Positions 35,868 to 58,786 of a stretch of 64,000 nt of DNA are shown here, in pieces. Within the stretch, counting starts at the first letter, position 1, and each line of letters opens with the position of its first letter. Both the position numbers and the translations under genes were made by a program. Below the pieces are notes generated by a model. That model made no database searches. It was not told the origin of the DNA and saw nothing but the letters and a program-made list of their open reading frames with translations. Source of the DNA: Candidatus Omnitrophota bacterium (GTDB lineage Bacteria; Omnitrophota; Gorgyraeia; Duberdicusellales; 4484-171); contig JAIPGM010000001.1 in NCBI GenBank assembly GCA_021735655.1, positions 160,001 to 224,000 on the forward strand, written 5' to 3'.

Positions 35868-35873
35868 TAGACT

Positions 35874-42000: not shown

Positions 42001-42540
42001 TCATTGCGTTCAAAAGGAATCTGGCAGGATTCTTACCAGGCAGCTTGGGAAATAGAGCATAAAGCTAAGGAAAAAATTGTGGCAACTGGAGGTTGGCCTT
42101 ACCTTCCCATTTCTCAAACATGGAAATTAGAGTTGCTCGGCAAGAATTCAATATCTTGGCAAGTTGACATGGAGATTTACGGTGAAGTTAATTTAGAGAT
42201 AGAACAGGCTAGTGTAATGATTTCTTCTAAATACAGGAATTGGGAAATTCCCAGTTTTAACAGCGGTAAATTTCTTGATGTCTATGTTAAGAATCACGAT
42301 ATTCTACCTTTTAGATTTTGGTCTGGGGATGCAAACAAGATAGCTGCTGTTTCAGAATGTTTTCCCTCGATAATTTTTAAAAGCGAAAGACAAGATAAAG
42401 AAATGCAGGCGGTTATAGAAAATACAGGTATTTTATATAGGGCAAGGTTGTTGCAGTATCAAAGTACAAGTAATAATGCAATTTTGCCAGGTAAATATCC
42501 ATACTTTAGGGGGATGATAGAAATTGAGACTAGGAAGTAA
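39073..42540 (+). CDS. ABC-2 exporter ATP-binding protein (Wzt/TagH-like) with a ~900-aa C-terminal extension made of four copies of a ~115-aa domain
   Basis: Walker A GENGAGKTTLLKLIAG, signature YSQGMYTRLAFA, Walker B ILLIDDILSVGD in aa 1-230, then repeats (next feature entries). Confidence 0.8.
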   Translation: MRIIEFNNVWEKYRIKFVRDRKVSWEEIWALSNIDFTVNKGEVIGIIGENGAGKTTLLKLIAGMFAPDRGDISVRGKVSVLMELGAGFNPEFTGRENVILNARIYGLDTDIVEQQMEKIVEFADIGKFIDAPVKYYSQGMYTRLAFALAIFVEPDILLIDDILSVGDADAQKKCIDKVFKLKESGKTIILVSHDMHMISRLCDRVILLDKGKLIDRGNPAEIIYHYLETVGDKSGIAVLEKDKLRLVFNNGRITFSYAGVPLTKEFGGYVAYFVSSLGSWLSSFDLFWKISHFSANKIVAEGEYKGRGPSQVWVLEFSESRLCWQVKIKDKDVRDPHIDLLLNPQYKKWLNLDQGGGFPSFISKSTWQNLGLANFPQAMVGLTADLEVKSCPSFVLTAEDKDTQIRLFNTGYDQEGRIIQLDLKLAGDNLFFLKIFPEKNIFEEYIKKEKDIFEESIKKVNQQLALEKEAQQVRLRDLSTFAWGNFSLFADKEEKSLKLYFKNKEVTKKEGFHISFLINNIWYDTTSADWQITKEKEVFIIKLFWKVFDFKQTWKFSVKNGGLLWNLNSIVKKTFNPEIMKIGLLLISEYKTFFCGYQQEDFPDKFSSWQDMSLKDPKARCFGLRKQTSLPAIALDNNESFDCIVQNSDEENSCRVLQLSLPRQSFIQKNTSFGVQLSLLEEESPIDHYLKQERQDHLLRQQEAKRLLSAKSTISKDNFRFFVDKEEKSLRIYFKDKEITKGAGLHSSLCVFGKWFHREETRWQTKKISDEEVVLILSYDSLPLLQIFSLSFKRKGILRVKVEMEISEQIHLSDHHLKLELQDDYNNWDTGYEQGNFFIDRYVDEIGPIRLKDNRISNILLRSNNESKIPKMLLKIISQIDRRIINLYKRRSEDGECVGLCSPLIVSKKEELVKPGKYTYFEGEIIFGKEAKLEREASRVDIVELKKDDIRFVFDRGRVKIFWKEEELTSELGIYTSLRSKGIWQDSYQAAWEIEHKAKEKIVATGGWPYLPISQTWKLELLGKNSISWQVDMEIYGEVNLEIEQASVMISSKYRNWEIPSFNSGKFLDVYVKNHDILPFRFWSGDANKIAAVSECFPSIIFKSERQDKEMQAVIENTGILYRARLLQYQSTSNNAILPGKYPYFRGMIEIETRK
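39787..40146 (+). repeat. Wzt C-terminal repeat domain, copy 1
   Basis: LRLVFNNGRITFSYAGVPLTKEFGGYVAYFVSSLGSWLSSFDLFWKI...QVWVLEFSESRLCWQVKIKD shares the [LI]-x-[FY]...G...W..S...W.I...Q.W...W.V pattern with the other copies. Confidence 0.6.
40525..40872 (+). repeat. Wzt C-terminal repeat domain, copy 2
   Basis: DKEEKSLKLYFKNKEVTKKEGFHISFLINNIWYDTTSADWQITKEKE...KQTWKFSVKNGGLLWNLNS. Confidence 0.6.
41224..41592 (+). repeat. Wzt C-terminal repeat domain, copy 3
   Basis: DKEEKSLRIYFKDKEITKGAGLHSSLCVFGKWFHREETRWQTKK..., nearly identical opening to copy 2. Confidence 0.6.
41899..42267 (+). repeat. Wzt C-terminal repeat domain, copy 4
   Basis: IRFVFDRGRVKIFWKEEELTSELGIYTSLRSKGIWQDSYQAAWEIEHK...LPISQTWKLELLGKNSISWQVDMEIYGE. 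Confidence 0.6.
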
Positions 42541-44890
42541 TTATCAAAAGTTTCGAAATCATCTAAGCGCGGGGGGTTTGATTTATGCTGTCTATAGAGG
42601 TATAAAATATTTTATTTATTTGCCGCAGAGGAGAAATTGTAAGCGTAAACAAAAACAAATAATGCTTATTAACGGCAAGCTAAGAATAGATTATTTGGAT
42701 AAAGGGATTGGCATGTCTTGGAATAATTCCCCAATTACCGAAAATGTACACTTTAATGTCGGGCTTAATACTTTAGGATTATGGACAGATTCTTCAAAGG
42801 CTCATTGGCAAATTATGGATCAAGGAGAAGATTATCTCAAGGTCAAGGTAATTTTCCAGGAGTTACCTTTGAGCCAGAATTGGCTAATAAAGTTAGAGGG
42901 CGACCACCAAATATACTGGAAGATAGATTTAGAAATAGAAGAGCATCTTCATATTGATGAATTCCGGATGGTTTGCGGAGTTAACCGTAAGTATAAAACT
43001 TGGATTAATAGCTTTCAGGAGAAAGTTTTTCCCCGGCTTAATCAATATTGGCAAGATTTATGTCTAGATAATGTTTTTACTTCTTTTGTGGGAGTAAGGT
43101 TTCCTACTGGAAACACTCTCTTGCCTTCATTGGTATTTGAATCTTGCGATGATAGCAGAGTTTTTTCCCCCCTTGTTCAAAATACCCCTTTAGATATTAA
43201 TACCCATATTATAGGATTTAGAAAGATTAATCACGAAGATGAAAGGGATTATCCGCCGGGTTGTTATCAGCTTTTTGCTGGCAGAATAAAATTATACGAA
43301 GACAATTATCTGTTAGATAAGAAAATAGAAGATGTGCGTCAAGATTACTTTAAGTCTACAATGAAACGAGTAAGTGCTATTTCCGAAGCCAAAGAATTAA
43401 AAGTTATGCTAGTAAATCTACCTTGGCAGAATAACGGGGTAGGGGGAGTAAGGGCTGGCTCTCGTTGGCCGCACATGAAAGATTTAAGCGAAGGAAATTA
43501 CTTACCATTTCCTTTTTTTCTTGCTTACGCCACCTCTCTTTTAGAAAAAAACGGTATCAAGGCTGACTTAGTTGATGCTATCGCAGAATGTTTATCCGAA
43601 GATAAGTTTATCGAGCGGCTTTTAGGAGCTAATTGTAATGTTTTAGTTGTTGAGACCTCTGTGCCTTCATTTTACCATGATCTGCAGCTATTAAGGAAGT
43701 TATCAAATTTTGGTTTTACAATAATTTTATGCGGTCCAAATTCTGAAATTTATAAATTTGAATTTTTAAAAGAAAATAGATTCATTAATTATGTTTTATT
43801 CGGAGAATATGAATTTACGCTTTTGGAATTGACGAAGATTATTTCTAAGGGCAAAAAAGATCTTACTTTTGTAAAAGGCCTTATTTGGAGAGATGAAAAA
43901 GGTAATATTATTAAGAATCATCCTCGGGAGCCTTTTGATATAAATTGTTTACCTTGGCCTCACAGGGATAAGCTTCCGATGGAAAAATATTGGGATTTAC
44001 CTGGTGATATTCCTCATCCTTCGGTTCAAATAGTTGCCTCGCGGGGTTGTCCTTTTGGTTGCAGTTTTTGCCTTTGGCCTCAGATTCTTTTTGGCGGAAA
44101 GACCTATAGAGTGAGGGACGTAACTGATTGCATTGATGAAATGGAGTACTTAGTAAGAGAAAAAGGCTTTAAATCAGTCTATTTCGATGATGATACTTTT
44201 AATGTCGGAAAAGCTAGGATGCTTGATTTTTGCAATGAGATTATAAAGAGAAAGCTAGATAATGTCCCCTGGGCAATTATGGCTAAAGCCGACCTTATGG
44301 ATGAGGAGATTTTAGATAAGATGAAGGAGGCTGGGTTACATGCGGTAAAGTATGGAGTAGAGAGTGCTTCGCAAGAGTTAGTGGATAGGTGTGGAAAATG
44401 TCTAGACCTTAAAAAAGCAGAGCAGATGATTAAATATAGCCAACATTTAGGCATAAAGGTTCATTTGACTTTTTCCTTTGGTCTTCCTGGAGAAACTAAG
44501 GAGACAATTAAAAAAACAGTTGATTATGCTTTAAAATTAGATCCACAGTCAGTTCAATTTTCAATTATTACACCTTTTCCAGGCACAACTCTTTTTGAAG
44601 AGCTAGATAAAAAGGAAAAAATTCTTACTAAGAATTGGTCTTTGTATGATGGTCATTATAGTTGTGTTTTCCAGCCGGATAACCTTTCTTTGGGAGATTT
44701 AGAAGAATCAAAACAACATGCTTACAGGTTGTGGCTAGATTATCAAAGGAAAAAAAGAGGATTGCTGGGTGATCTAAAAAGGTTCTATAATTATGCACAA
44801 AAAGATGGTTTAGGCAATGCAGTTAAGAAGACTAAAGATTACTTGAATTATTCTATTTTTCATAGAAAGAAGTTTATCGGTAAGATATGA
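42524..44890 (+). CDS. B12-binding radical SAM enzyme with an N-terminal Wzt-C-like ~115-aa domain
   Basis: N-terminal domain (nt ~42663-43030) IDYLDKGIGMSWNNSPITENVHFNVGLNTLGLWTDSSKAHWQIM...LPLSQNWLIKLEGDHQIYWKIDLEIEE parallels Wzt repeat 4. The radical-SAM cluster is SRGCPFGCSFC (nt ~44044-44075). B12-binding-like region precedes it. Confidence 0.75.
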   Translation: MRLGSNYQKFRNHLSAGGLIYAVYRGIKYFIYLPQRRNCKRKQKQIMLINGKLRIDYLDKGIGMSWNNSPITENVHFNVGLNTLGLWTDSSKAHWQIMDQGEDYLKVKVIFQELPLSQNWLIKLEGDHQIYWKIDLEIEEHLHIDEFRMVCGVNRKYKTWINSFQEKVFPRLNQYWQDLCLDNVFTSFVGVRFPTGNTLLPSLVFESCDDSRVFSPLVQNTPLDINTHIIGFRKINHEDERDYPPGCYQLFAGRIKLYEDNYLLDKKIEDVRQDYFKSTMKRVSAISEAKELKVMLVNLPWQNNGVGGVRAGSRWPHMKDLSEGNYLPFPFFLAYATSLLEKNGIKADLVDAIAECLSEDKFIERLLGANCNVLVVETSVPSFYHDLQLLRKLSNFGFTIILCGPNSEIYKFEFLKENRFINYVLFGEYEFTLLELTKIISKGKKDLTFVKGLIWRDEKGNIIKNHPREPFDINCLPWPHRDKLPMEKYWDLPGDIPHPSVQIVASRGCPFGCSFCLWPQILFGGKTYRVRDVTDCIDEMEYLVREKGFKSVYFDDDTFNVGKARMLDFCNEIIKRKLDNVPWAIMAKADLMDEEILDKMKEAGLHAVKYGVESASQELVDRCGKCLDLKKAEQMIKYSQHLGIKVHLTFSFGLPGETKETIKKTVDYALKLDPQSVQFSIITPFPGTTLFEELDKKEKILTKNWSLYDGHYSCVFQPDNLSLGDLEESKQHAYRLWLDYQRKKRGLLGDLKRFYNYAQKDGLGNAVKKTKDYLNYSIFHRKKFIGKI

Positions 44891-47800
44891 AGAATTATCT
44901 AGTCACCTGGGATAAAATATGTAAGGGTATAACTAAGCAAAAGAAGATATTTTGTGGCCCACACACTGTCCAAATAGATTTAACCGACAAATGCAATAGT
45001 AGCTGCGTTGCTTGTTGGATTCACTCACCTTTAGTTGAGGAAAAAAAATCATTTCCAGAAGGCAAAAAACAACTTTCTTTCGAATTAGTTAAAAGTTTGA
45101 TTAATGATTTGTCTGATTTAGGAACTCAGGAGGTAATTTTATCCGGATCAGGGGAGCCATTTTTATATCCAGAAATAAAAGAGGTTATAAAAAATATAAA
45201 GTCAAAAAATATGTATCTAAATATAATTACCAATGCTTCTCTTATCGATGAGGAAATGGCAGAGCTGTTAGTAAAATGCAAAGTCGATTTAATTACTGCC
45301 AGCATATGGGCCGGTGATGCTGAAACTTACAGCTTAACTCATCCAGGAAAAAGCGAAGCTGATTTCGAAAAAATAAAGAGTAACTTAAAGAAATTGGCTT
45401 TTTATAAGAAGCGGTATGGTTCATTGGAGCCGCATTTAAAATTATATAATGTAATTTGCAGTAAAAATTATAGAAATATTGAGGAAATGGTTGATTTTGC
45501 TAAATCAATGGATGCCGATTCTTTAGAGTTTCAGGTTGTTGATATAATTTCTGGGAAAACAGATCATTTGGCCCTGAAAGATGCCTATAAGAGCGAGATA
45601 GTAAATCAATTGGACAATATAAGAAAGCGAAAAGATTTAATATCTTTTAATACGCCTAAAGAAATGCCGATAGATAGTTTTATTGATGAGGAATTTTTTG
45701 ATTTTGGAAAGATTTGGAAAAATTACAAAAACGGCTTTTGCGTTTCTCAGTGTAGCAGTTCTTTGGTTTGCAAAAAAGATCACGAGATAAAAGATAAGAG
45801 AATTATTGTTTCAGAGTCGACATCAACCAGAGGGACTCGTCCGGTTGCATTTTGGTATAAATTTGAAAATAATATATGTAAAACTTGCGAGGAAAATATT
45901 GAGTGCGTTGACGATGAAAATGCAGTGAGCATAAAATTGTTGAATATGTTGGGTATTGGTTCATTTTTGAGGAGATTATTGCGCTCTGATTTAGAGAGAG
46001 GGATATATGAAAAGCAAATAAATAGCATCCCATGTTATATAGGGTGGTATTATTCTCGTATTTTAGCTAATGGTGATGTTATCCCTTGTTGCAAGGCAGG
46101 TAAGTTATCTTTAGGTAATATTAAGAAAAGAACTTTTTCTAAAATTTGGCATTCCTATCGATATAAAAAGTTTCGGCTTAACGCTAAGAATTTAACTAAG
46201 CATCATAAGTATTTTTCTAACATCAATTGCATCAAGAGTTGCGATAATTGGGGAGTAAATTTAGAAATCGACGGGAGATTGAAGGAATTTGAAAATAAAG
46301 AGAAAAAAAAGGAGCCTTACCTTTTAACTATCAAGAATAGCATTATAAAGGGTAGGGTTGAGGATACGCTTGCAAAAATTACTCGTAATATTAAACCGAA
46401 TAATTTAAAAAAGAGATATTCAGAAATTTTAGGTGTATTTGATGGTGAACATGGTTATAAAGGTCCATTCCACGTTCAGATAGACTTGACTAATGATTGC
46501 AATAACACTTGCATTGCTTGTTGGTGCAATTCACCTCTTTTGAAAGAGAAACGATTATCGGCTGATAAAAAAAATCAATATTTACCTTTAGGAATGGTAA
46601 AGGAATTATTGGATGAGATTACTAATATGGGTGCTACTGAGGTCTATTATTCAGGAAGTGGTGAACCATTTATGCATCCAGCGATTATGGAGATTCTCGA
46701 TTATTCAAAAAAGAAAGGTTTAATCTGTCACGTAAATACTAATTTTACTCTTCTTAATCAAGAAAAGATAGATTGCTTAATCGATATGGAGGTTGACCAT
46801 CTTACGGTGAGTGTTTGGGCGGCTACGGCCGAAACTTATGCAAAAACTCATCCTAATAAAACCGAGGCTGACTTTCAACGGATAAAAGAGAATTTACTAT
46901 ATCTGAACTTACGAAAGAAAAGTAAGCCCTGTATAAAAATTTATAACGTTATTTTTAACATGAATTACCTTGAAGTTGAGAAGATGCTTGATTTTGCCGT
47001 TGAGACTAAATCTGAATCTTTAGAATTTACCCTTGTAGATACTATGCCTGGGGCTACTGATATGCTTGCTTTAAATCAAGGACAGTTGGATGAGCTTAAT
47101 GATTTATGCAGGAAAATAAAATTAAAATTAGATAAAAATTACATAATTAGGAGTAAAAAGGTATTGCTTTTTCAGTTTGAGCAGTTTTTGAGAAGGATTT
47201 CTGTTTCTCAAGATGTCCAGGAGGCAAAATACGATAGAGGTGTTATTGATAGTATGCCTTGTTATATTGGTTGGCTTTTTGCACGAATAATTCCTAACGG
47301 GGAAGTTCATTCTTGTCTTAAGGCGCATAGAATTCCGACCGGTTCTTTGTATAAAGATAGATTTTTCGAAATTTGGAATAGTGCTAAACAGGCACATTTT
47401 CGTAAAAAGACTTTAGTTTGCAGAAAAGATGATCCTTTCTTTAGGTTGATTGGCAACGATCCCAATACAAAGGAGGCCGGTTGTTACAAGAGTTGCGATG
47501 ATATCGGGAGGAACACTTGGATGCATAACAAGATGAATATGTTGACGCCACTGGGAAGGCTGACACTTAAGTACGTAGCTAAAGCCATGAAGCCTCTAAG
47601 GAGGCTTAGGTCCAAAAACGATAATTTTAAGAATTACCACAGTGACCCTTTAATTGCCGGGGTCATCCATGGCCGGAAGGCTTTTTTGGGACCCGAACAA
47701 GTAGTAATTGATCCGACCAATAAGTGTAATTTGCAATGCATTTCTTGTTGGATGTATTCGCCATTATTGAAAAAAAATAAACCAGCTTTGGATTTATTGA

Positions 47801-48741
47801 AACAAGAATTATCTAAAGAGGTACTTATTAAATTAATCGATGATTTAGCTGATTTAGGAACAAAGCGTATTAGGTTCACTGGTGGCGGAGAGCCTTTTAT
47901 GCATAAAGATTTGATGACAGTAATAGAGCATGCCCGAAAAAAGAATATTTTAGTTGCGGTAACTACGAACTTTGGTTTGGTCTCTAGACAGGATATTCTT
48001 AGATTGTGTGATTTGGGATTGGAGGAGTTATGCATAAGCATTTGGGGTTCTTCATCGAGAGTCTACAATTTGGTTCATCCTGGTACCGGTGAGGATTATT
48101 TTAAGAAATTAAAAGAAAATCTTTCTTATTTGAAAGGGCTAAATAAGTATAAACCGCGGACTACCTTTGCTAATGTAATCATGAATAATAATTTCACTGA
48201 TTTTGAAGCAATGTATGATTTTGCTTTAGATCATGGAGCTGATGCAGCCTATTTTACCTTGGTTGATATTATTTCCGGTCAAACCGATAAGTTCTTGTTG
48301 AATAAAGATGAACGAAGCGAATTGCTAAAGAGAGCTCTTATGGTTCAGCAACGAAATAAAGATAACAAGCTGCAGCTTGAATTTTTTGAGAATTTTCTAA
48401 AAAGAGTATCTAGTTTCCAAGGAGACTTTGAAAAAGGAGAATATGATAAATCGAGCATTGATCAATTGCCTTGTTATGCCGGCTGGATTTTTTCAAGAGT
48501 TTTGGCAGACGGAAGCGTTGCGCCCTGCTGCCGGGGGGTTAAAAAAATAATCGGCAACATCAAGACTAAATCTTTTAAAGATATTTGGTTTTCGCCCGAA
48601 TACAATGAGTTTAGAGTTAAAGCAAAGTATTTATCGAAAAGCAACGCTTACTTTAAGGATATAGGCTGTATAAAAGAATGTGATAATTTGATGCATAATC
48701 AGGAGTTTCATAAAAGAATAAATCTAAAAGAAGGAGGTTGA
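44887..48741 (+). CDS. Triple-module radical SAM / SPASM-domain protein (three tandem radical-SAM + Cys-rich auxiliary-cluster units in one 1284-aa polypeptide)
   Basis: Three C-x3-C-x2-C cores: DKCNSSCVACW (nt ~44991-45015), NDCNNTCIACW (~46498-46524), NKCNLQCISCW (~47722-47750). Each is followed by SGSGEPF/TGGGEPF and a C-terminal PCY[IA]GW...CC...GC[IY]K[SE]CD SPASM/twitch-like Cys cluster. Confidence 0.8.
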   Translation: MKNYLVTWDKICKGITKQKKIFCGPHTVQIDLTDKCNSSCVACWIHSPLVEEKKSFPEGKKQLSFELVKSLINDLSDLGTQEVILSGSGEPFLYPEIKEVIKNIKSKNMYLNIITNASLIDEEMAELLVKCKVDLITASIWAGDAETYSLTHPGKSEADFEKIKSNLKKLAFYKKRYGSLEPHLKLYNVICSKNYRNIEEMVDFAKSMDADSLEFQVVDIISGKTDHLALKDAYKSEIVNQLDNIRKRKDLISFNTPKEMPIDSFIDEEFFDFGKIWKNYKNGFCVSQCSSSLVCKKDHEIKDKRIIVSESTSTRGTRPVAFWYKFENNICKTCEENIECVDDENAVSIKLLNMLGIGSFLRRLLRSDLERGIYEKQINSIPCYIGWYYSRILANGDVIPCCKAGKLSLGNIKKRTFSKIWHSYRYKKFRLNAKNLTKHHKYFSNINCIKSCDNWGVNLEIDGRLKEFENKEKKKEPYLLTIKNSIIKGRVEDTLAKITRNIKPNNLKKRYSEILGVFDGEHGYKGPFHVQIDLTNDCNNTCIACWCNSPLLKEKRLSADKKNQYLPLGMVKELLDEITNMGATEVYYSGSGEPFMHPAIMEILDYSKKKGLICHVNTNFTLLNQEKIDCLIDMEVDHLTVSVWAATAETYAKTHPNKTEADFQRIKENLLYLNLRKKSKPCIKIYNVIFNMNYLEVEKMLDFAVETKSESLEFTLVDTMPGATDMLALNQGQLDELNDLCRKIKLKLDKNYIIRSKKVLLFQFEQFLRRISVSQDVQEAKYDRGVIDSMPCYIGWLFARIIPNGEVHSCLKAHRIPTGSLYKDRFFEIWNSAKQAHFRKKTLVCRKDDPFFRLIGNDPNTKEAGCYKSCDDIGRNTWMHNKMNMLTPLGRLTLKYVAKAMKPLRRLRSKNDNFKNYHSDPLIAGVIHGRKAFLGPEQVVIDPTNKCNLQCISCWMYSPLLKKNKPALDLLKQELSKEVLIKLIDDLADLGTKRIRFTGGGEPFMHKDLMTVIEHARKKNILVAVTTNFGLVSRQDILRLCDLGLEELCISIWGSSSRVYNLVHPGTGEDYFKKLKENLSYLKGLNKYKPRTTFANVIMNNNFTDFEAMYDFALDHGADAAYFTLVDIISGQTDKFLLNKDERSELLKRALMVQQRNKDNKLQLEFFENFLKRVSSFQGDFEKGEYDKSSIDQLPCYAGWIFSRVLADGSVAPCCRGVKKIIGNIKTKSFKDIWFSPEYNEFRVKAKYLSKSNAYFKDIGCIKECDNLMHNQEFHKRINLKEGG

Positions 48742-48747
48742 AGTTAA

Positions 48748-49566
48748 TTGAATATGGCGGGTAAAGTGGGTGCTATCGATTTTCAATTATTTTTAAGAAA
48801 AATCAGCCTTGAGCGTTTTTTTCAAAGTTTTTATTATTTTAAATGGTTGGAATACCCTTTAGTCTACAATAACCTTGAACTAAAAGCAGGTGAACAGTAT
48901 CTCGATATCGGTAGTGGAAAGTCCATTTTTCCTCTATTTGTCGTAGCGAAAAATAACTGTAACGTGCACGTATTTGATGATCAGTCCATTATAAAAGACA
49001 GTATTACTTATTATCAGAGCAATATTAGAAAGATGGGGTTATGCAATATTTCTGGAAAAAATTTCTTGATTCACGAAGCTACAGAGAAAGGACAGCTCGA
49101 TTTTCCTGATAATTACTTTGATAGAGTTTCTTGTATTTCGGTATTAGAGCATATTAAGGGCAATGGTGATAGTGTAATGATGCAGGAAATATCAAGAATT
49201 TTAAAAAAAGGCGGGAGGGCTGTGATAACTTTTCCGTTTAATGGCAAGGATTATATAGAAGAAGATAACCCAGAAGGGGTAGGATATTTCCAGCGGAAGT
49301 ATAGTGTAGCGGCGATTAAAGAGCGGATAATTGATCCAGCCAATTTAAAGGTTAAGAAGGTTATATATTTTGGAGAACGTTATATAAGTTTTGGGGAACA
49401 ATACTTGCAGAATAAATTTAGAAAAATAAATTGGCTCATACCTTTATTCGCGCCTATTTTATGGAGGGTGTGCCATTATTATGAAGGTGAATATCGCAAT
49501 TTTTATGAGCGAGCAATAGATAAAAAAGGTACTGGCGTAGCGTGTATTGTTTTTGATAAGATTTGA
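48748..49566 (+). CDS. Class I SAM-dependent methyltransferase (Methyltransf_11-like)
   Basis: YLDIGSGKSIFPLFVVAKNNCNVHVFD (motif I and the acidic residue at the end of beta-2). Strong RBS AAGGAGG at 48731-48737 before the TTG start. Confidence 0.7.
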   Translation: MNMAGKVGAIDFQLFLRKISLERFFQSFYYFKWLEYPLVYNNLELKAGEQYLDIGSGKSIFPLFVVAKNNCNVHVFDDQSIIKDSITYYQSNIRKMGLCNISGKNFLIHEATEKGQLDFPDNYFDRVSCISVLEHIKGNGDSVMMQEISRILKKGGRAVITFPFNGKDYIEEDNPEGVGYFQRKYSVAAIKERIIDPANLKVKKVIYFGERYISFGEQYLQNKFRKINWLIPLFAPILWRVCHYYEGEYRNFYERAIDKKGTGVACIVFDKI

Positions 49567-49591
49567 ATAAGCAAAATTGTGAAAATTTAAG

Positions 49592-50464
49592 ATGCTGACT
49601 TTTCCTAAATATCTTTCAATCCAAACTACTTCTCTATGCAATGCTTCTTGTGTATTTTGTCCCTATAAAGATATAAAAGATGTAAGGTTCAAGACAATAA
49701 TGGATAGAGGCCTTTATGAAAAAGTTATTAATGAATGCAGTAACCATAAAGATATTGAATGCATTATAGTTTACATGAATAACGAGCCCTTAACTGATCC
49801 TTGCATAGTTGAGAGAATAAATTATGCCAAAGATAAAGTTCCTTGGGCTAGTGTGCATATCTTGACCAATGGAGCCTTACTTAGCGATGACCTGGCTGAT
49901 AAACTTATTGATTCTCGTCTAGACTGGATCGGGGTAAGCTTTCATGGGATCAGAAAAGAAACTATAGAGCGGGCAATGGGCATTCCTTATGAGATCAGCT
50001 TGAAGAGAATAACCAATTTTATCGAAAAAGCAAAAGCGAAGAAAAATATAAAGAACTATTTTATGCTAACTTTTTTGCGCCATGTATATTTGACTCCTCA
50101 AGAGCGGGAAGAGGCTATTAGTTTTTGGAGAAAACTGGGGATAGAAAGAATAAGCTATTTTGACGGGCCCATATCTCGGGCCAGCAATGTAACTAATTTA
50201 CCAAAAGTCTACCATCAAGGCAAGATCAGTGGATGTAATTCTATCTGGGCTGATGAGATGCTTCATGTGGTAGAGGATGGTAAGGTTATTTTGTGCTGCA
50301 TGGATTGGCGAAGAGAAGTAATTTTAGGCGACCTAAACAAACAAAGCATCCATGAAATATGGAATGGCAAAAGAAGAAAGATTTGGGATATGATTCGTGG
50401 AACAGGAGAGGTTCCTGAAGGATTTTTGTGCCGCAGGTGCGAAGAGGCTAAGCAAGAGATTTAA
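49592..50464 (+). CDS. Radical SAM / SPASM-domain protein (single module, 290 aa)
   Basis: TTSLCNASCVFCPY (C-x3-C-x2-C, nt ~49631-49665). C-terminal CCMDW...GFLCRRCEE Cys cluster. Confidence 0.7.
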   Translation: MLTFPKYLSIQTTSLCNASCVFCPYKDIKDVRFKTIMDRGLYEKVINECSNHKDIECIIVYMNNEPLTDPCIVERINYAKDKVPWASVHILTNGALLSDDLADKLIDSRLDWIGVSFHGIRKETIERAMGIPYEISLKRITNFIEKAKAKKNIKNYFMLTFLRHVYLTPQEREEAISFWRKLGIERISYFDGPISRASNVTNLPKVYHQGKISGCNSIWADEMLHVVEDGKVILCCMDWRREVILGDLNKQSIHEIWNGKRRKIWDMIRGTGEVPEGFLCRRCEEAKQEI

Positions 50465-50467
50465 AGG

Positions 50468-52636
50468 ATGCTCATGAAAAATGAAAATTGCGAATTAATT
50501 TTTGTAATGACTCCGCCTTGGCAGACAAAGATGCCGCCTTTAGGCTTGGCCTATTTAGCCAGTTTTTTGAAGTCAAACAATATTAACGTAGATGTCATAG
50601 ATTTGAATGTGGATCTTTTTAATAATGCTCAAGAATGCCATAAATATTTTTGGGATATAGAAACAATAAGTAATTTTGGTTCGCTTCGGATTGCCCAAGA
50701 TTTTATTAAGGCATTCAATAAAGAACTTGAAAATTTTGTTGATCGAATCTGTAGTCATCCTGCAAAGTTGGTCGGTTTTTCTACTACGGTAGCTAGTATA
50801 AATATCGCCACCTACCTTACTCATCGGATAAAATCAAAAGATCCTTCGAAAATAATTATTTTAGGCGGGCCAGGATGTTTTTTGGATACTTGCAATATAG
50901 ATCCTGAAAGGGTGGTAGATATTTTTGTCATTGGCGACGGAGAGCTGCCTTTATTGGATATAGTTAAAAGATTTAAAGATAAACAGTCTTTGTCTGATTT
51001 GTTGGAGGTTCCTGGGACAATAATTTGTCTAGATAAGAAATATCATGACTTTTCACCGGCGAATCCTGTTAAGCAGATAAACGATATTCCTTTTCCTACT
51101 TTTTCGGAGTTCGAGCTGGATGAATACCATAAAGAACATGTTTACAAACCAATTCCAATTATTACCAGCAGAGGCTGTATAAATAAATGCAGTTTTTGCG
51201 TAGACCATAAGCTCAGTAATCCTTTTAGATTTCGAAATCCGCACAAAATATTTGAAGAGATAAAATACCATGTAGAAAATAATTGTAAAAAAGAGTTTGA
51301 GTATAACGATCTACTATGTAATGGAAATTTAAAGCAATTGGAGCAGCTTTGCGACCTGATCATTGAAAGCGGCCTGTCTATAAAATGGACAAGCTATGCG
51401 GCCATAAGGAAAGGTATGAGTTTAGAGTTATTTCAGAAGATGCAGAAGGCGGGATGCAGATTTTTATGTTATGGTATGGAGTCAGCTTCAGATTTAGTTT
51501 TAGATAAGATGAATAAAAGATATAATTCTCATACGGCAGAGGATGTTATTAGAAAAACCCATTCCTCAGGTATCGAGACAGGAATCAACATTATAGTTGG
51601 CCACCCCGGTGAGTCGAATAAAGAATTTAACCAAACTTATAGATTTATCAAAAGAAACAAAGACTACATTGATCAAATCACAAACCTGTCTACTTGTTTT
51701 TTAATACCGACTTCGGATTTAGCTGAGAATATGAGCAATTTCGGTATTTATTTTTATTCTCCTTTGAAAAGGATGCCAAAATTCTTATTTCGAAATAAAG
51801 AGCTTGAGCCTAATTATGAAAATTTCTGCGCCTATCCTCATAATACTCCTGCGATTAGAGCAAAACGAGCCAGAAAAATTATAACTCTTGCTTCAAAGAT
51901 AGCTATACCGATTACTATTTTGAACTATCAAAAGCAGCACGATATGGGTATGGGGGATTTTCTAGTCCAAACTCAAGAAGCGGAAAAAGTTTTTCGTTGT
52001 AAGAAGTTAAAGATAGACTTTAGTCAAAAAGGAAGCGGTAGGTTATATTATGACAATAAGGCCTTAACTAAAGACGTAGGCCTAAATGCTTCCTTTCATG
52101 CCAATGGGCGATGGTTTGATTCTTCTTCGGCAAAGTGTCGGGTAGCCAGATCCAACAGAGGCTTGGAAATAAGAATGAGTTGGCCGGAGATTTCTTTGTT
52201 TCAATGCTGGACGATAAAAACAGAAGGTGATTCTTCTGTCGAATGGCGGGTAAAAACAGAGTTTAAAAGGTCTTTGGAGCTATCTCAATATAAGATCGGC
52301 ATTATCTTGTCACAGGAATACGATAGTTGCCAAGTTAATGGTGAAGAACACCGATTCTCCGATAATTTTACCGAGAACTGGGAGGAAGCATTGTTTTTGA
52401 AGCTTGATTCGATAAGCATCGGCTCTAAGGGATTTTTACCGATGATGACCCTGAAGGAAGAATCCAAGGGTGGTGTGTTCGTGCAGGTCCATAATACCCC
52501 GCTTCACTTGCATACTCGAATGATTAATTTTTGCCGTTTTGGCGAGAACCTTAAAGATGACCACAGCACTGAATCTTTATTGATCAAAAAAGGTGATGTT
52601 TGGAAAAATAAGCTAAAAATAAAATTAAAGGTTTAA
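50468..52636 (+). CDS. B12-binding radical SAM enzyme with a C-terminal Wzt-C-like domain
   Basis: B12-domain start IFVMTPPWQTKMPPLGLAYLASFL. Radical-SAM cluster TSRGCINKCSFC (nt ~51171-51206). C-terminal domain (nt ~52001-52400) GRLYYDNKALTKDVGLNASFHANGRWFDSSSAKCRVA...ISLFQCWTIKTEGDSSVEWRVKTE matches the Wzt repeat pattern. Confidence 0.75.
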   Translation: MLMKNENCELIFVMTPPWQTKMPPLGLAYLASFLKSNNINVDVIDLNVDLFNNAQECHKYFWDIETISNFGSLRIAQDFIKAFNKELENFVDRICSHPAKLVGFSTTVASINIATYLTHRIKSKDPSKIIILGGPGCFLDTCNIDPERVVDIFVIGDGELPLLDIVKRFKDKQSLSDLLEVPGTIICLDKKYHDFSPANPVKQINDIPFPTFSEFELDEYHKEHVYKPIPIITSRGCINKCSFCVDHKLSNPFRFRNPHKIFEEIKYHVENNCKKEFEYNDLLCNGNLKQLEQLCDLIIESGLSIKWTSYAAIRKGMSLELFQKMQKAGCRFLCYGMESASDLVLDKMNKRYNSHTAEDVIRKTHSSGIETGINIIVGHPGESNKEFNQTYRFIKRNKDYIDQITNLSTCFLIPTSDLAENMSNFGIYFYSPLKRMPKFLFRNKELEPNYENFCAYPHNTPAIRAKRARKIITLASKIAIPITILNYQKQHDMGMGDFLVQTQEAEKVFRCKKLKIDFSQKGSGRLYYDNKALTKDVGLNASFHANGRWFDSSSAKCRVARSNRGLEIRMSWPEISLFQCWTIKTEGDSSVEWRVKTEFKRSLELSQYKIGIILSQEYDSCQVNGEEHRFSDNFTENWEEALFLKLDSISIGSKGFLPMMTLKEESKGGVFVQVHNTPLHLHTRMINFCRFGENLKDDHSTESLLIKKGDVWKNKLKIKLKV

Positions 52637-52646
52637 AAATTTACAT

Positions 52647-55600
52647 ATGAATCTAACAGATAAAATTTTATTAGTGGGTCTTGCTCCTTGGGGAGTAGAT
52701 ACGCCACCCCTAGCCTTAGCTTGTTTAAGTACCTCTTTGAGGAATGCAAATATTAGCACTGAAGTATTTGATATGAATATTGAGCTTTACAATGCCGTTA
52801 ATGAGCAAAGTAAATATTTGTGGAGTATGAATTATTCTCATTGGTGGCGAGAGCCAGAAAGATATTCTGATATTAGAAAGGAATTAGATGTTTACATAGA
52901 ACCTTTAATAAAGAAAATTTTAAGTTTTAAGCATAAGATAGTTGGCTTTTCACTTTCTACTAATTGCTCTGACCTTTTGTTGGAGGAGATAGTAAAAAGA
53001 ATAAAAACTAGCGATCCCGATAAGGTAATAATTCTAGGTGGTGTTTCAATTTCAATAAATGAGCAGAGAAATGATTTAATTAGGAAGTTAAGGACGCAGA
53101 TAGATTACTGTGTGATTGGAGAAGGAGAAGAGGTACTTGTCGAATTGGTAAAGAAAATAGCTAGCAATAAGCTAGAAGATATAGGTCGATTGCCAGGCAT
53201 AATTAAGAAGGGTGAGTTTGAAGGAGTTAAACAGAGGGCAGAGATCAAAGATTTTAATTCGCTGCCATTTCCTACATTTGAAGAATTCAATTTAAAAAAA
53301 TATAAAGCACCCGTGAGCTTACCTATGGAATTTTCTCGTGGCTGCGTAGGTAGTTGTCCTTTCTGCGATTTTAAAAGCGTTTCTTCTGCCTTTAAGTCAA
53401 AAGCACCTTATTATATTATAAGCCAGATAAAATTCTATAAAGAAAAATACAATATTATTCATATGAGCCTATCTGACCCAGCAGTAAATGGAGATATTAG
53501 GGTTCTTGAGCAAATATGTGATTTATTAATCGAAGCTAACCTTTCTGTAAATATAAATTCTCTGGCAATTCCCCGCAAGGAAATGACCTTAGAACTATTA
53601 GAGAGAATGAAGAAAGCAGGTTTTTATCGTTTGGAGTATGGTCTAGAGAGCGGTTCGAATAAGATTCTCAAAGCAATGAGGAAAATATTTACTGTCGAAA
53701 TTGCCGAGAAAGTTATCCGAGATACTTATCAAGCAGGGATAAAAACATATCTCTATTTAATTGTGGGTTATCCACAGGAGACAGAGGATGATCTCAATCA
53801 GACCAAAGATTTTTTGAATAGAAACCGTCAGTATATTTCCATGATAAAGTCTATCAACCCTCTTTATGTAATGGCCGGTTCAGAGATATTTTGCAATCCC
53901 GATAAATATCAAGTCACATTACCGGCTAAAGATAGTGACAAGAGATGGTTTATTGGTGATAAGAATACATATTCTTTGCGAAAAGCCCGGATATTTGAAC
54001 TTAAAAAAGTAGTTGCTAGTTTAAATATTCCCTTTACCGAAGAGGCGGAATCTTTAGAGTTTACTGGAAACTCTTTAAATAAACAACAAGGAATCGTTGT
54101 AGGTGGAGGCAATCCATACGATAAAGATGAGTCAACTACAGAAAATAAAATTATGTCTAGAGGATATGCAGAACAAAAAACAGATAAATATAGAGATAGT
54201 TTTTTATTAATTAATTTGCCCCCTTGGGGTCAAGAAAATCCTCATATCGGAGTAGGCTATGTGTGTAGCTATCTTCGTCATAAAGGCTTTAAGCCATCGG
54301 TCTTAGACTTGAATAAGAAATTTTATTTGAGTCAGCCAAATTTTCAAATGCTCTGGCATGTAGAAAATAAAAACTTTTGGTCAAATCAAGATTCTTTTCC
54401 TTTGATTTTAAAATTATTTAAGAAGGAAATAGATAAGGCAATAAATGATATTTTGTCTTCAGGTTGCAGCCTATTAGGTTTCTCGGTAGTTGACCCTAAA
54501 GAAAAAATAACTATAGAGTTCATTAGGAGAATAAAACGTAGGGATAAAAGTAAAAAGATAATTTTAGGTGGTCCGGCAACTTCTACTTATGAGCAGAGAA
54601 AGATATTTTTGGATAATGTTGAGGAAGAGATAGATACTTTTGTGATCGGCGAAGGCGAGCAAACTTTGTTTAAGGTAGTAGACCGAATTTTAAAGAAAAA
54701 AGAGCTTAAAGGTATCGAGGGTTGTTGCAGCCGGGATAATGGTAAGTGGGTTTGTCGAGAAAGCGGTGAGATTGTTTCTTTAGATAAGATTCCTTTCCCG
54801 ACCTATGAGGAATTTGATTTGAGTCTATACGGTAAATCTTTCCTTGTTGAATGGTCAAGAGGCTGTAGGAGTAAATGCGCTTTTTGCAAAAATTATCGGC
54901 TTTTTTCTTCTTATCGGTCAAAGTCAGCTGAATCGGTTATGAAGGAATTGAGATATCATAAGCAAAAGTATAATGTAGATGAATTCACTGTAGTCGATAA
55001 TATTTTGAATGGTGATCTAAATACCTTGAATGATATTTGCGACAGGATAATAAAGGAAAATCTTCAAATTAGATGGACTGGGCAAATTGCCCCCCGCAAA
55101 GATATGAATTTTGAATATTTCCAAAAAATGAAGCAGGCCGGATGTTTTAAACTTCAAATTGGCCTTGAGTCTGGTTCGAACAAGGTGTTAAAGTTAATGC
55201 ATAAGAGCTTTACGGCAGAGATTTCTGAAAAAAATATAATTTTTGCTAAGAAAGCAGGCATTGAGACAGAAATTTTTACAATGATTGGTTTTCCCGGGGA
55301 GGCTGAGAAAGATTTTCAAGAAACTTACGATTTTATAAAAAGAAATGCAAAATATCTGGATACCATAAAATCGATAAACACCTTACATCTAATAGCCGGA
55401 ACTGAAATCTATGAGCAGAGAGAGCGTTTTAAAATAAAGCCTTTACCTCAAGAAAACTGGCATTATTTATGGGAAACTTATGAGGGAAATACATACAAGG
55501 TACGGGAAGAAAGAGCTAAGCGTATTCTAGGGTTAGCTTGCGATCTTAAGATTAAAGTTATGGAGACTAATATTATAGAGGGAAAAGAGCAAAAAGTTTT

Positions 55601-55805
55601 GCTTGAAAATCTCGGCTTATTGGAAAAATCCCTGAATTCTTTGCAAGAGTTACCAGAAAAAGAAGAATTTAAGCTAAAAAGAAGAAATATTAATAAATGG
55701 TTAATCCTGATTTTTGTTTCTTTTTACACATTTTTTTATATTATTTATTTTTGGGTATTTATGATTTTTAGAAATAAAGTTCTCTTGGGGGGAAGAAAAA
55801 AGTGA
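52647..55805 (+). CDS. Double-module B12-binding radical SAM protein (two complete B12-rSAM units fused) with a C-terminal transmembrane helix
   Basis: Unit 1: LVGLAPWGVDTPPLALACL then SRGCVGSCPFC (nt ~53335-53370). Unit 2: LINLPPWGQENPHIGVGYV then SRGCRSKCAFC (nt ~54855-54893). C-terminal WLILIFVSFYTFFYIIYFWVFMIF. Confidence 0.8.
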   Translation: MNLTDKILLVGLAPWGVDTPPLALACLSTSLRNANISTEVFDMNIELYNAVNEQSKYLWSMNYSHWWREPERYSDIRKELDVYIEPLIKKILSFKHKIVGFSLSTNCSDLLLEEIVKRIKTSDPDKVIILGGVSISINEQRNDLIRKLRTQIDYCVIGEGEEVLVELVKKIASNKLEDIGRLPGIIKKGEFEGVKQRAEIKDFNSLPFPTFEEFNLKKYKAPVSLPMEFSRGCVGSCPFCDFKSVSSAFKSKAPYYIISQIKFYKEKYNIIHMSLSDPAVNGDIRVLEQICDLLIEANLSVNINSLAIPRKEMTLELLERMKKAGFYRLEYGLESGSNKILKAMRKIFTVEIAEKVIRDTYQAGIKTYLYLIVGYPQETEDDLNQTKDFLNRNRQYISMIKSINPLYVMAGSEIFCNPDKYQVTLPAKDSDKRWFIGDKNTYSLRKARIFELKKVVASLNIPFTEEAESLEFTGNSLNKQQGIVVGGGNPYDKDESTTENKIMSRGYAEQKTDKYRDSFLLINLPPWGQENPHIGVGYVCSYLRHKGFKPSVLDLNKKFYLSQPNFQMLWHVENKNFWSNQDSFPLILKLFKKEIDKAINDILSSGCSLLGFSVVDPKEKITIEFIRRIKRRDKSKKIILGGPATSTYEQRKIFLDNVEEEIDTFVIGEGEQTLFKVVDRILKKKELKGIEGCCSRDNGKWVCRESGEIVSLDKIPFPTYEEFDLSLYGKSFLVEWSRGCRSKCAFCKNYRLFSSYRSKSAESVMKELRYHKQKYNVDEFTVVDNILNGDLNTLNDICDRIIKENLQIRWTGQIAPRKDMNFEYFQKMKQAGCFKLQIGLESGSNKVLKLMHKSFTAEISEKNIIFAKKAGIETEIFTMIGFPGEAEKDFQETYDFIKRNAKYLDTIKSINTLHLIAGTEIYEQRERFKIKPLPQENWHYLWETYEGNTYKVREERAKRILGLACDLKIKVMETNIIEGKEQKVLLENLGLLEKSLNSLQELPEKEEFKLKRRNINKWLILIFVSFYTFFYIIYFWVFMIFRNKVLLGGRKK

Positions 55806-56962
55806 AAATACTAATGGTGCACCCCCATGATTTATTTGATCGGTCTGAACCTTGGACGATAAGAATTAAGAGTATAGCCAGAGAATTTGAGAAAAAGGAT
55901 CACAAGGTTAAATTGTGTTATTTCCCTTTAACTATAAATGAAAAACATTATCCTAAAAATATGGGATCTATAGAACTGATCCCCTTAGATCGAACACCTT
56001 CTCCGAAAGCTTTTATTATAAATATAATTAAACTTATAAAATTGTGTAAATGGGCGAATATCGTCCACTTGCAGAAATGTCATCATTACTCTTCAATCCC
56101 TACGGTAATTGCTGCCTATATTGCCGCTAAGCCTCTTCATTATGACTGGGATGATTGGGAGGAGAAAATTTGGTATGAATCCTGCGGTAGAGGTTTACAT
56201 TCCCGTTTCATCGGTTTTTCATTTAAAGTATTAGAGAGATGGCTTCCGGTTTTAGCTGATTCAACTTCTTGTGCTAGCAAGTGTTTGAGAAACTTAACTT
56301 ATAAGTTTGGAGTAAAAAAAGAATACATATTTGATACTCCGGTAGGAGCTGATCTAGATAAATTTAAGCCTAGCCTAAATGGTCAATGGGTTAAGAAAAA
56401 ATTCAATATTAGTTCAGATTTAGTTTTATATATTGGTCAGTTACACGGAGCCCAATACGTAGATATATTTATAAAAGCGGCCAATATCCTTTCTTCTGAG
56501 CGGCCGGATGTCAAATTTATGATTGTTGGTGAAGGTTTTTCGGAACATTCATTGAAACAGCTTACTTATGATTTAGGCTTAAAAGATAAAGTTATTTTTA
56601 CCGGGAGCATACCTTATGGTGATATTCCCGATTATGTTAATGCTGCATCAGTATGCGTGGCACCCTTTAAAGATACTGAGGTAACTCGTTGCAAGAGTCC
56701 TTTAAAAATTGCAGAGTATTTAGCCAGCGGTAAACCAATAGTGGCAAGTTTAGTAGGTGAAGTAAGAAATATGATCGGCGGCTGTGGAGTTTTAGTCAAG
56801 CCGGGGGATCATCATTCTTTAGCTGAAGGAATTCTGCGCCTAGTTGAAGATAAAGAATTAAGAGGTAAATTATCTAAGCATGCACGTAAGCGGGCTGAGA
56901 GAAAGTATAACTGGACCAACACGGCAGATTCCTTAATTTGCGCCTACAAAAAGATACTGTAA
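55802..56962 (+). CDS. GT4-family glycosyltransferase
   Basis: 386 aa. GT-B C-terminal half with VVASLVGEVRNMIGGCGVLVKPGD. 4-nt overlap with the upstream gene. Confidence 0.75.
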   Translation: MKILMVHPHDLFDRSEPWTIRIKSIAREFEKKDHKVKLCYFPLTINEKHYPKNMGSIELIPLDRTPSPKAFIINIIKLIKLCKWANIVHLQKCHHYSSIPTVIAAYIAAKPLHYDWDDWEEKIWYESCGRGLHSRFIGFSFKVLERWLPVLADSTSCASKCLRNLTYKFGVKKEYIFDTPVGADLDKFKPSLNGQWVKKKFNISSDLVLYIGQLHGAQYVDIFIKAANILSSERPDVKFMIVGEGFSEHSLKQLTYDLGLKDKVIFTGSIPYGDIPDYVNAASVCVAPFKDTEVTRCKSPLKIAEYLASGKPIVASLVGEVRNMIGGCGVLVKPGDHHSLAEGILRLVEDKELRGKLSKHARKRAERKYNWTNTADSLICAYKKIL

Positions 56963-58107: not shown

Positions 58108-58785
58108 TTGGGTTATCTTGTTGAGACGCATCAACTAACTAAAATATTTAAGCCACACAAAGGCATTGGTGAGAAGCTTAGAGGCTCAGCAGCTCGAACC
58201 GAGGTAAAGGCTGTAGATAGAGTTAGTTTTTCTTTAGAAGCAGGTTCCACCATGGCTATTATGGGTCCTAATGCTGCCGGAAAAACAACTCTTTTAAAAC
58301 TAATCGCTTCTTTAATTATTCCAACCAGTGGTCGGATTTCGGTTAAAGGTACAATTGGTTTGGTTACCGGGGAAGAGAGGAGTTTTTACTGGCGCTTGAG
58401 CGGTCAGCAGAATTTAGAGTTTTTTGCTGCTTTGTACGGTTTGGGAAAATCCGAAGCCAAGAGGCGAATCCAGCAGTTGGTTGAATTGCTGGGCATCGAG
58501 GATATGAGTGATGTTCTGGTTCAAGAGTATTCCTCGGGATACAAACAGAGGCTGGCTATTGCTAGAGGATTATTGCATGATCCGGATATCTTGCTTTTAG
58601 ATGAACCCACTAAAAATTTGGATTCTTCTCACGCTGAACATTTAAGAATTTTTATAAGAGAAAACTTAGGTAAAGAAAGCAAAAAGACAGTTATTTTTAC
58701 TAGTCATAACTTAGAGGAAGCTTCGTTTTTAGCGAATAAATTAGCAGTAATGGATAAGGGTTGCCTAAGGCAACAGGATAGTTGA
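58108..58785 (+). CDS. ABC transporter ATP-binding protein (second ABC-2-type exporter ATPase)
   Basis: Walker A GPNAAGKTTLLKLIAS, signature YSSGYKQRLAIARGL, Walker B LLLDEPTKNLD. RBS AAGGAG at 58095-58100. TTG start. Confidence 0.8.
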   Translation: MGYLVETHQLTKIFKPHKGIGEKLRGSAARTEVKAVDRVSFSLEAGSTMAIMGPNAAGKTTLLKLIASLIIPTSGRISVKGTIGLVTGEERSFYWRLSGQQNLEFFAALYGLGKSEAKRRIQQLVELLGIEDMSDVLVQEYSSGYKQRLAIARGLLHDPDILLLDEPTKNLDSSHAEHLRIFIRENLGKESKKTVIFTSHNLEEASFLANKLAVMDKGCLRQQDS

Positions 58786-58786
58786 T

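Follow-up and report, generated by a model that had tools for sequence, protein, structure and literature searches.

The O9a and O8 polymannans of Escherichia coli are produced by the glycosyltransferase family 4 (GT4) mannosyltransferases WbdA, WbdB and WbdC, the capping methyltransferase/kinase WbdD, and Wzm/Wzt, an exporter with a C-terminal carbohydrate-binding module. In Wzm/Wzt pathways the whole chain is built and capped in the cytoplasm, and the C-terminal module of Wzt reads the finished chain. Sugars are known targets of radical S-adenosylmethionine (SAM) chemistry in small-molecule antibiotic pathways, where the diol dehydratase AprD4, the twitch dehydrogenase BtrN, DesII, BlsE and the B12 C-methyltransferases GenK and GenD1 tailor aminoglycoside and nucleoside sugars; DesII and BlsE act on nucleotide-linked sugars. 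A further enzyme of this superfamily, the hopanoid-associated, B12-domain-bearing HpnJ, probably turns bacteriohopanetetrol glucosamine into a cyclitol ether by contracting its glucosamine ring. Here we analyze a stretch of 64,000 nucleotides (nt), referred to throughout as the window, from a bacterium of Candidatus Omnitrophota, a widespread and uncultured phylum of ultra-small, possibly host-dependent bacteria. The window contains a dense island of radical SAM (rSAM) genes at nt 42524-55805, set between a Wzm/Wzt-type exporter and two GT4 genes.

We consider it probable that this island is the tailoring section of a Wzm/Wzt-type, that is ATP-binding cassette (ABC)-transporter-dependent and O-antigen-like, cell-surface glycan pathway. 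The locus resembles the O9a/O8 systems in pairing Wzm with a C-terminally extended Wzt, in the adjacent cytoplasmic GT4 enzymes and in the presence of a SAM methyltransferase, and it would share their logic of a cytoplasmic modification that is read by an extra domain of the exporter. Relatives of the cassette also carry a WecA-type primer and a Wzy_C ligase, as O-antigen pathways do. The architecture is of the ABC-transporter-dependent O-antigen type with three departures: the Wzt extension is a tandem module of different fold, made of one to eight galactose-mutarotase-like domains and not of Wzt_C (PF14524); the same domain, which we call X, is also fused to tailoring enzymes; and a battery of three to nine rSAM modules is found instead of the kinase/methyltransferase cap. 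Unlike AprD4, BtrN, DesII, BlsE, GenK and GenD1, which act on soluble small metabolites in antibiotic pathways, the modules of the island lie in a polymer-export locus and carry a domain of glycan-binding type and a predicted membrane anchor.

A domain shared by the exporter and the radical SAM enzymes

The island consists of six co-directional open reading frames (ORFs), the rSAM genes R1 to R5 and a class I methyltransferase gene, which overlap or lie 3-25 nt apart (Table 1). Pfam searches place eight Radical_SAM domains (PF04055) in it, one each in R1, R3 and R4, three in R2 and two in R5. An earlier sequence-only reading of this DNA had counted eight cores in five adjacent genes together with a methyltransferase; the domain searches confirm this (PF04055 eight times, PF08241), and each core position that it gave falls within about 10 nt of a C-x3-C-x2-C motif start. 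Its placement of Wzm/Wzt upstream (PF01061, PF00005) and of GT4 genes downstream was also correct, and the cores, the methyltransferase, the exporter and both GT4 genes are all co-directional. The same reading divided the cores into four of B12-binding and four of SPASM/twitch class. Profile hidden Markov model (HMM) searches recover both domains: the C-terminal auxiliary Fe-S domain SPASM (PF13186) in three stretches of R2 (6.9e-34) and one of R3 (2e-10), and the B12-binding domain PF02310 ahead of the rSAM core in R4 (7.8e-11) and in both halves of R5 (6.6e-19). The division stands for these seven cores, but R1 itself has no PF02310 match in Pfam, while many of its orthologues do carry that domain.

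Domain X, of about 210 amino acids (aa), is present in six copies, with four in tandem at the C-terminus of the Wzt protein (aa 239-1155), one at the N-terminus of R1 (aa 48-278) and one at the C-terminus of R4 (aa 509-721). When the proteins of the locus were compared with one another by BLASTP, the copies matched with E-values of 1e-7 to 1e-16, the R4 copy finding R1 at 1.9e-16 and Wzt at 2e-12, and the alignment agrees with these matches. X has no match in Pfam, and the extension of Wzt gives no match to Wzt_C at E<=0.01. An AlphaFold2 model of X from 57 sequences (predicted local distance difference test 92.8, predicted template modeling score 0.87) is all-beta with a helix of about 30 residues at its end. 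The fold is the galactose-mutarotase-like beta-supersandwich, as found in aldose 1-epimerases and in accessory domains of glycoside hydrolases and lyases, and nearly all of the structural neighbors of X are carbohydrate-active proteins.

A charged, coiled-coil-like helix follows each X (Wzt aa ~440-485, 680-715 and 925-945; R1 aa ~268-296); in the R1 model it comprises residues 221-249 of the modeled fragment. The charged helices behind the X copies could mediate oligomerization of Wzt with the X-bearing rSAM proteins.

X is a rare domain. An exhaustive HMM search with the six-copy alignment found it in 626 of 1.84 billion representative proteins; a word-indexed search with the same alignment had returned no match, and in view of these 626 proteins we attribute that apparent absence to low sensitivity. 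Among the best 150 of the 626, X is joined only to ABC ATPases, B12 rSAM enzymes or SPASM rSAM enzymes. The ABC ATPase proteins carry about two to eight tandem copies, with a single X on Wzt in more distant loci; in P0190 (2244 aa) the ATPase is followed by at least seven. In P0135 (1856 aa) and P0242 (1217 aa), one polypeptide combines ABC_tran, two to five X copies, Radical_SAM and SPASM by Pfam. Fusions of ATPase, X and rSAM in one protein argue for a common target of exporter and rSAM enzymes.

The fusions bear on the stage at which the chemistry would take place. The rSAM enzymes might act on nucleotide-sugars or other soluble precursors before polymerization, with X serving only to assemble the complex. 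The known carbohydrate enzymes DesII, BlsE, BtrN and AprD4 do act on small molecules, the first three of them are among the closest structural neighbors of R3, and nucleoside diphosphate (NDP)-sugar epimerases and dehydratases lie between the rSAM genes of one related locus (L060). Against this, the same X domain is found on the exporter ATPase, where the precedent is recognition of the polymer, the ATPase is fused directly to an rSAM enzyme in some relatives, and one of the B12 enzymes is predicted to be membrane-anchored. We therefore regard tailoring at the precursor level as unlikely. Under the preferred reading of glycan tailoring, X would bind the glycan and the rSAM modules would act on polymer-linked sugars.

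Conservation of the cassette and the nature of its substrate

We scanned one genome per GTDB species with R1-type rSAM motifs as the query and obtained 65 loci, labeled mostly Omnitrophota, with about ten Planctomycetia or Planctomycetales and a few that bear names of unrelated phyla or no label. The cassette is conserved across Candidatus Omnitrophota, in the recurring order flavin adenine dinucleotide (FAD) oxidoreductase, Wzm, Wzt with a varying number of X copies, X-B12 rSAM, further SPASM and B12 modules, and often GT4. Wzm and Wzt-X stand directly before the rSAM block in 34 of the 42 loci with enough upstream sequence. Of 68 loci, 37 showed GT4 genes, and one to nine rSAM modules were counted per locus; many loci are incomplete, and the module counts are lower bounds. 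In at least 19 related loci the FAD oxidoreductase gene immediately precedes Wzm. Loci collected in this way are unable to test whether X-Wzt and rSAM genes are constantly paired, so we turned to the loci of three ABC-X proteins that the X-seeded search had yielded. In all three, rSAM genes lie beside Wzm/Wzt-X and the FAD gene, which is again directly upstream of Wzm; a WecA-type transferase (PF00953) is present in two, a Wzy_C ligase in two and ManC in one.

Two variants of the order were seen. In a five-locus sub-lineage among the other eight of the 42 loci (L030, L034, L036, L039 and L041; also L008, L026 and L045), two separate SP proteins are followed by one of X-X-X-SPASM layout, with no Wzm/Wzt in the fetched range; in the first five of these loci there usually follow a B12-X-SPASM-X protein, a B12 protein and GT4, and the X repeats are on the rSAM protein and not on the ATPase. 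A minimal version, with one X on Wzt and two rSAM genes, is found in a metagenome-assembled genome labeled Gammaproteobacteria, in the order rSAM, family 2 glycosyltransferase (GT2), epimerase, B12 rSAM, epimerase, Wzm, Wzt-X, GT4, GT2, dehydratase.

To survey the neighbors, all other ORFs of at least 120 aa in the loci were clustered and the largest clusters annotated. These were GT2 enzymes (28 loci), further rSAM/SPASM genes (19), GDSL hydrolases (16), PMT_2 enzymes of the GT-C type (12), carbamoyltransferases (10), WecA-type initiating transferases of PF00953 (8), asparagine synthases (AsnB; 5), O-antigen ligases (Wzy_C; 3) and NDP-sugar epimerases (3). Judged by these annotations, the recurrent neighbor content is that of a surface-polysaccharide locus.

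The neighbors also bear on the relationship of R1 to HpnJ (TIGR03471), its best-scoring named family at 236 bits against a cut-off of 577.6 (E=8.5e-70), and one whose substrate is a membrane-bound sugar. R1 differs from HpnJ in its extra N-terminal X, and there are no hopanoid genes in the window or among the recurrent neighbors. On the model of hopanoid, ladderane or tetraether lipid biosynthesis, the rSAM enzymes could methylate, cyclize or cross-link a membrane lipid or the lipid portion of a glycolipid, with the GT4 enzymes adding a head-group sugar and the ABC-2 transporter flipping or exporting the product, and lipid rSAM enzymes are present in some Omnitrophota. However, the scores of the island modules against lipid families are far under the cut-offs, with the ladderane-type and other families below the 236 bits of HpnJ, and in the substrate of HpnJ itself it is the sugar, glucosamine, that is acted on. 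No lipid-biosynthesis genes recur beside the cassette, unlike genes for GT2, GT4, WecA-type, Wzy_C, carbamoyltransferase and NDP-sugar enzymes. The fold of X is of the carbohydrate-enzyme type, and the array of two to eight X on Wzt points to multivalent contact with a repeating polymer in place of one head group. A lipid or glycolipid product thus appears improbable to us, and an exported glycan remains the preferred substrate.

Proteusin and related clusters of the polytheonamide type, with several B12 rSAM C-methyltransferases and an rSAM epimerase, are likewise dense in B12 and auxiliary-cluster rSAM enzymes and also include a class I methyltransferase and an exporter; their products are ribosomally synthesized and post-translationally modified peptides (RiPPs). 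The B12 and SPASM enzymes would in that case act on a ribosomal peptide whose gene lies elsewhere, or on part of the giant protein encoded at the left end of the window, for export by the ABC-2 transporter. In contrast to the polytheonamide-type clusters, the island has no precursor gene and no protease gene, and since its genes overlap or are separated by the short gaps given above, there is no space in it for a small gene. Neither PqqD nor a RiPP recognition element (RRE) domain was matched in Pfam, and the C-x3-C-x2-C motif starts at residue 16 in R3 (CNASCVFC) and at residue 36 in R2, too near the N-terminus for an RRE to fit ahead of it. The exporter, a Wzm/Wzt-type one, has no peptidase domain, and the conserved neighbors are all glycan genes. 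We also considered the giant protein as the substrate or an obligatory partner and rejected it as obligatory, since its ORF does not adjoin the cassette in those related loci that were inspected gene by gene.

The one recurrent family among 942 small intergenic ORFs in 69 loci is a peptide of about 40 aa with a basic N-terminus, a single hydrophobic transmembrane (TM) helix and the pattern LLKK.R...FPGG. It occurs as a free ORF after the last B12 rSAM gene in eight to ten loci, of which four are listed in Table 1. We considered it as a RiPP precursor and rejected it: in at least eleven other related loci this sequence is instead the C-terminal end of the last B12 rSAM enzyme, comparable to the tail of R5 (WLILIFVSFYTFFYIIYFWVFMIF), which ends in a hydrophobic helix, and the peptide is for this reason taken as a membrane anchor and not a precursor. 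By sequence, the R5 tail and the free peptide are predicted to be one anchor in fused and split form. We hold a RiPP product to be highly improbable, in agreement with the sequence-only reading, which had seen no small ORF resembling a precursor and had preferred the exported glycan as the substrate; that preference is supported by the synteny, the glycan neighbors, the fusion proteins and the absence of a precursor and an RRE. The C-methylation and epimerization chemistry that it proposed, and a heavily modified polysaccharide, remain inferences.

Several points weigh against glycan tailoring. The 65 loci are biased towards rSAM content because they were found through R1-type motifs, the loci from the unbiased X-seeded search number only three, and the other eight of the 42 loci have no Wzm/Wzt in the fetched range. 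Between 31 and 64 kb of the window two GT4 genes adjoin the island, but no stand-alone initiating transferase or ligase is found there. Since the identity of X to its structural neighbors is 5-10%, the result for X is a fold assignment and no proof of carbohydrate binding, and the fold is also that of YidC's periplasmic domain and of a capsid protein from PBCV-1. No rSAM module of the island reaches the curated cut-off of any NCBIfam family, in which they again differ from the antibiotic-sugar enzymes, and because of this the reaction types are guesses. The whole case is computational, and to our knowledge no Omnitrophota glycan has been analyzed so far. Taken together with the evidence above, the genomic case for glycan tailoring is nevertheless strong and internally consistent.

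The radical SAM modules and a proposed mechanism

R1 is homologous to HpnJ, BchE and AprD4. From aa 296 it aligns to positions 5-432 of the 472 in the HpnJ model, and its closest solved relative is AprD4 (6fd2, 1.9e-26), a diol dehydratase that is not known to use cobalamin; because of this nearest relative, the B12 class of R1 is a statement of domain homology only. The top 120 relatives of R1 are full-length or nearly so at 46-65% identity, one identical entry aside, and those that are named are nearly all labeled Omnitrophota. An R1 protein identical but for a later annotated start, and an identical R3 protein, occur in a metagenome-assembled genome labeled Candidatus Omnitrophica. The three modules of R2, SP1 to SP3, are 35-43% identical to one another and 62-69% identical to the modules in the same position in L002 and L007, against 32-46% for modules in other positions. 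SP1 has nine conserved extra cysteines, while SP2, SP3 and R3 have only four to five and lack the full seven-cysteine SPASM motif; their pattern, C-x17-20-C(C) ... C-x2-3-C, is that of a BtrN-like twitch domain.

The best families of R4 are PhpK-type and TIGR03975 (110 bits), both under cut-off, and R5 scores 280.1 bits, summed over its two modules, against TIGR03975 (RiPP rSAM C-methyltransferase), where the cut-off of 281.85 is not reached. Searches of PDB sequences with R4 and with the first module of R2 gave marginal matches only. The rSAM modules switch between fused and split forms across species while positional orthology is kept, and in L002, for example, R3 is fused to the orthologue of the second module of R5. 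This shuffling with retention of positional orthology suggests that the modules work together.

We propose the following mechanism. The GT4 enzymes would assemble a lipid-linked glycan on the membrane's inner face, and the eight rSAM modules would act in the cytoplasm, held at the membrane and the polymer by X in R1 and R4 and by the tail anchor of R5. There they would abstract hydrogen from sugar carbons and so remodel the chain. Most likely, the B12-type modules R4, R5a and R5b would methylate, R1, with its likeness to HpnJ and AprD4, would rearrange or dehydrate a sugar ring, and the twitch-type modules SP1-SP4 would dehydrogenate or epimerize; the class I methyltransferase may add an O-methyl group. 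The four X copies of Wzt, located where characterized Wzt proteins bear their glycan-recognition module, would then select the finished chain for export through Wzm.

A more ambitious form of this proposal, which we offer as speculative and rather unlikely, is a single membrane-bound machine, made up of exporter and rSAM modules, that processively edits a lipid-linked polysaccharide while the chain enters Wzm/Wzt, with export gated on the modifications. Such a machine would be held together by the shared X domain, the helices behind it and the tail anchor, and in some species would be a single polypeptide. Its product might carry C-methyl branches, deoxygenated or keto sugars, carbocyclic (cyclitol) units or C-C cross-links, modifications that would be new to polysaccharides, and the gating would be performed by a new class of Wzt recognition module.

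If glycan tailoring is the function of the island, it would amount to rSAM editing of an exported cell-surface polysaccharide, for which there is no described precedent. Our literature search returned no publication that connects rSAM enzymes to Wzt, O-antigen loci or the present Omnitrophota cassette, and queries on rSAM enzymes with C-methylation or exopolysaccharide, and on Omnitrophota with Wzm, found nothing relevant. In a 2026 preprint on giant proteins of Omnitrophota, radical SAM is listed only among the domains that these proteins contain (10.64898/2026.06.07.730766). Omnitrophota would then decorate a surface glycan with up to nine radical enzymes, and such a glycan is a plausible determinant of attachment to hosts or prey. 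Functions would follow for several uncharacterized families of B12 and twitch rSAM enzymes, a new glycan-recognition module would be defined for Wzt exporters, and the two GT4 genes, the eight rSAM modules and Wzm/Wzt would form a compact gene set for new carbohydrate chemistry.

Surroundings of the island in the window

Table 1. Positions of the cassette, its modules and the surrounding features in the window, and of free anchor ORFs in related loci. E-values follow the Pfam accession or name.
Feature	Position (nt)	Strand	Evidence and remarks
Giant ORF	1-31038	+	at least 10,345 aa; continues beyond the left end of the window
Bac_transf (phosphoglycosyl transferase) domain of giant ORF	~14455-14994	+	aa 4819-4998; TM-like peak at aa 4824
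Opp/Dpp-type ABC importer	31079-36842	+	complete: SBP_bac_5, two permeases, two oligo_HPY ATPases
FAD/NAD(P)-binding oxidoreductase, amine-oxidase fold, PRK07208-like	36986..38293	+	first gene of conserved cassette; Amino_oxidase 3.4e-21, NAD_binding_8
Wzm-type ABC-2 permease	38294..39076	+	PF01061 4.9e-12
Wzt-type ABC ATPase (aa 1-240) with four tandem X	39073..42540	+	PF00005 8.7e-25; 1155 aa
Wzt X1	39787-40512	+	BLASTP and alignment
Wzt X2	40513-41181	+	BLASTP and alignment
Wzt X3	41212-41904	+	BLASTP and alignment
Wzt X4	41905-42537	+	BLASTP and alignment
R1: X, ~30-aa helix, B12-domain-like rSAM	42524..44890	+	PF04055 7.9e-21; 788 aa
R1 X	42665-43357	+	
R1 rSAM part	43394-44890	+	CPFGCSFC at 44048
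R2: three fused rSAM + SPASM/twitch modules	44887..48741	+	PF04055 x3 (2.4e-50, three stretches), PF13186 x3; 1284 aa
R2 SP1	44887-46326	+	motif start 44992
R2 SP2	46327-47601	+	motif start 46498
R2 SP3	47602-48741	+	motif start 47725
Class I SAM-dependent methyltransferase	48748..49566	+	PF08241 3.6e-09, PF13847, PF13489
R3: small rSAM, twitch-like auxiliary-cluster domain	49592..50464	+	PF04055 2.1e-15; motif start 49637; 290 aa
R4: B12-binding rSAM, X at C-terminus	50468..52636	+	PF02310, PF04055 9.5e-18; 722 aa
R4 B12-binding rSAM part	50468-51952	+	motif start 51176
R4 X	51992-52630	+	
R5: two fused B12-binding rSAM modules, tail-anchor helix	52647..55805	+	PF02310 x2, PF04055 x2 (4.8e-44, two stretches); 1052 aa
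R5 module a	52647-54146	+	motif start 53343
R5 module b	54147-55805	+	motif start 54864
R5 C-terminal hydrophobic helix	55698-55769	+	aa 1018-1041
GT4 glycosyltransferase a	55802..56962	+	PF00534 1.3e-28, PF13692
GT4 glycosyltransferase b	56938..58062	+	PF13692 9.5e-20, PF00534, PF13439
DrrAB-like ABC-2 exporter (ATPase and permease)	58108-59590	+	directly after the GT4 genes
HemW-type haem chaperone gene	59598-60944	-	205.5 bits, cut-off 205.4
Free ~40-aa anchor ORF, L003	17500-17619		
Free ~40-aa anchor ORF, L009	8360-8479		
Free ~40-aa anchor ORF, L012	11243-11368		
Free ~40-aa anchor ORF, L018	14766-14888		

The remaining genes of the cassette were compared with NCBIfam. The oxidoreductase matches PRK07208.1-4 (171 bits) and, weakly, UDP-GALP_mutase (64.7 bits), both under cut-off. 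The best match of Wzm is the galactan export permease Wzm/RfbD (54 bits), with KpsM next, and those of Wzt are TagH (205 bits) and Wzt/RfbE (156 bits); since the TagH, Wzt/RfbE and Wzm/RfbD scores lie below the orthologue cut-offs, the exporter is assigned by family-level similarity and not by orthology. The two GT4 proteins are 30% identical in the BLASTP comparison of locus proteins, and the methyltransferase was seen in only a few related loci, such as L011. Rfam found neither a cobalamin riboswitch nor any other RNA family in the window, and shuffled sequence gives promoter-like and terminator-like sites at least as often as the window does.

Downstream of the GT4 genes is a second, DrrAB-like ABC-2 exporter, whose ATPase has, among the related loci, a weak match in L069 only. 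The rSAM gene that follows on the minus strand was considered as a ninth member of the island and rejected, as it is HemW; it marks the end of the co-directional block.

Upstream, an Opp/Dpp-type importer lies between the giant ORF and the glycan cassette; related loci that were inspected gene by gene lack it. No repeat adhesin, the giant ORF is a series of enzyme-like blocks: TreT_GT1, GT1, GH77, Bac_transf, an ELFV dehydrogenase, a pyridoxal phosphate-dependent decarboxylase, GH100 and a GT4-like C-terminus. A motif of the type PLDNG[RKH] separates the blocks and occurs 29 times, against 0.008 copies expected from composition, at spacings of 17-925 aa, and could be a conserved linker or a polyprotein cleavage site; it is not mentioned in the giant-protein preprint (10.64898/2026.06.07.730766), nor did we find it in the literature in this context. 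The Bac_transf domain is the sole candidate within the 64 kb for the initiating transferase of a lipid-linked glycan, and by its annotation could prime the pathway that the rSAM cassette would tailor.

The G+C content is 0.335-0.362 over the cassette (38000-58000 compared) and 0.405-0.433 over most of the giant ORF (1-26000). The glycan locus is compositionally distinct, which fits the variable surface-polysaccharide loci reported on Omnitrophota chromosomes (10.64898/2026.06.07.730766).

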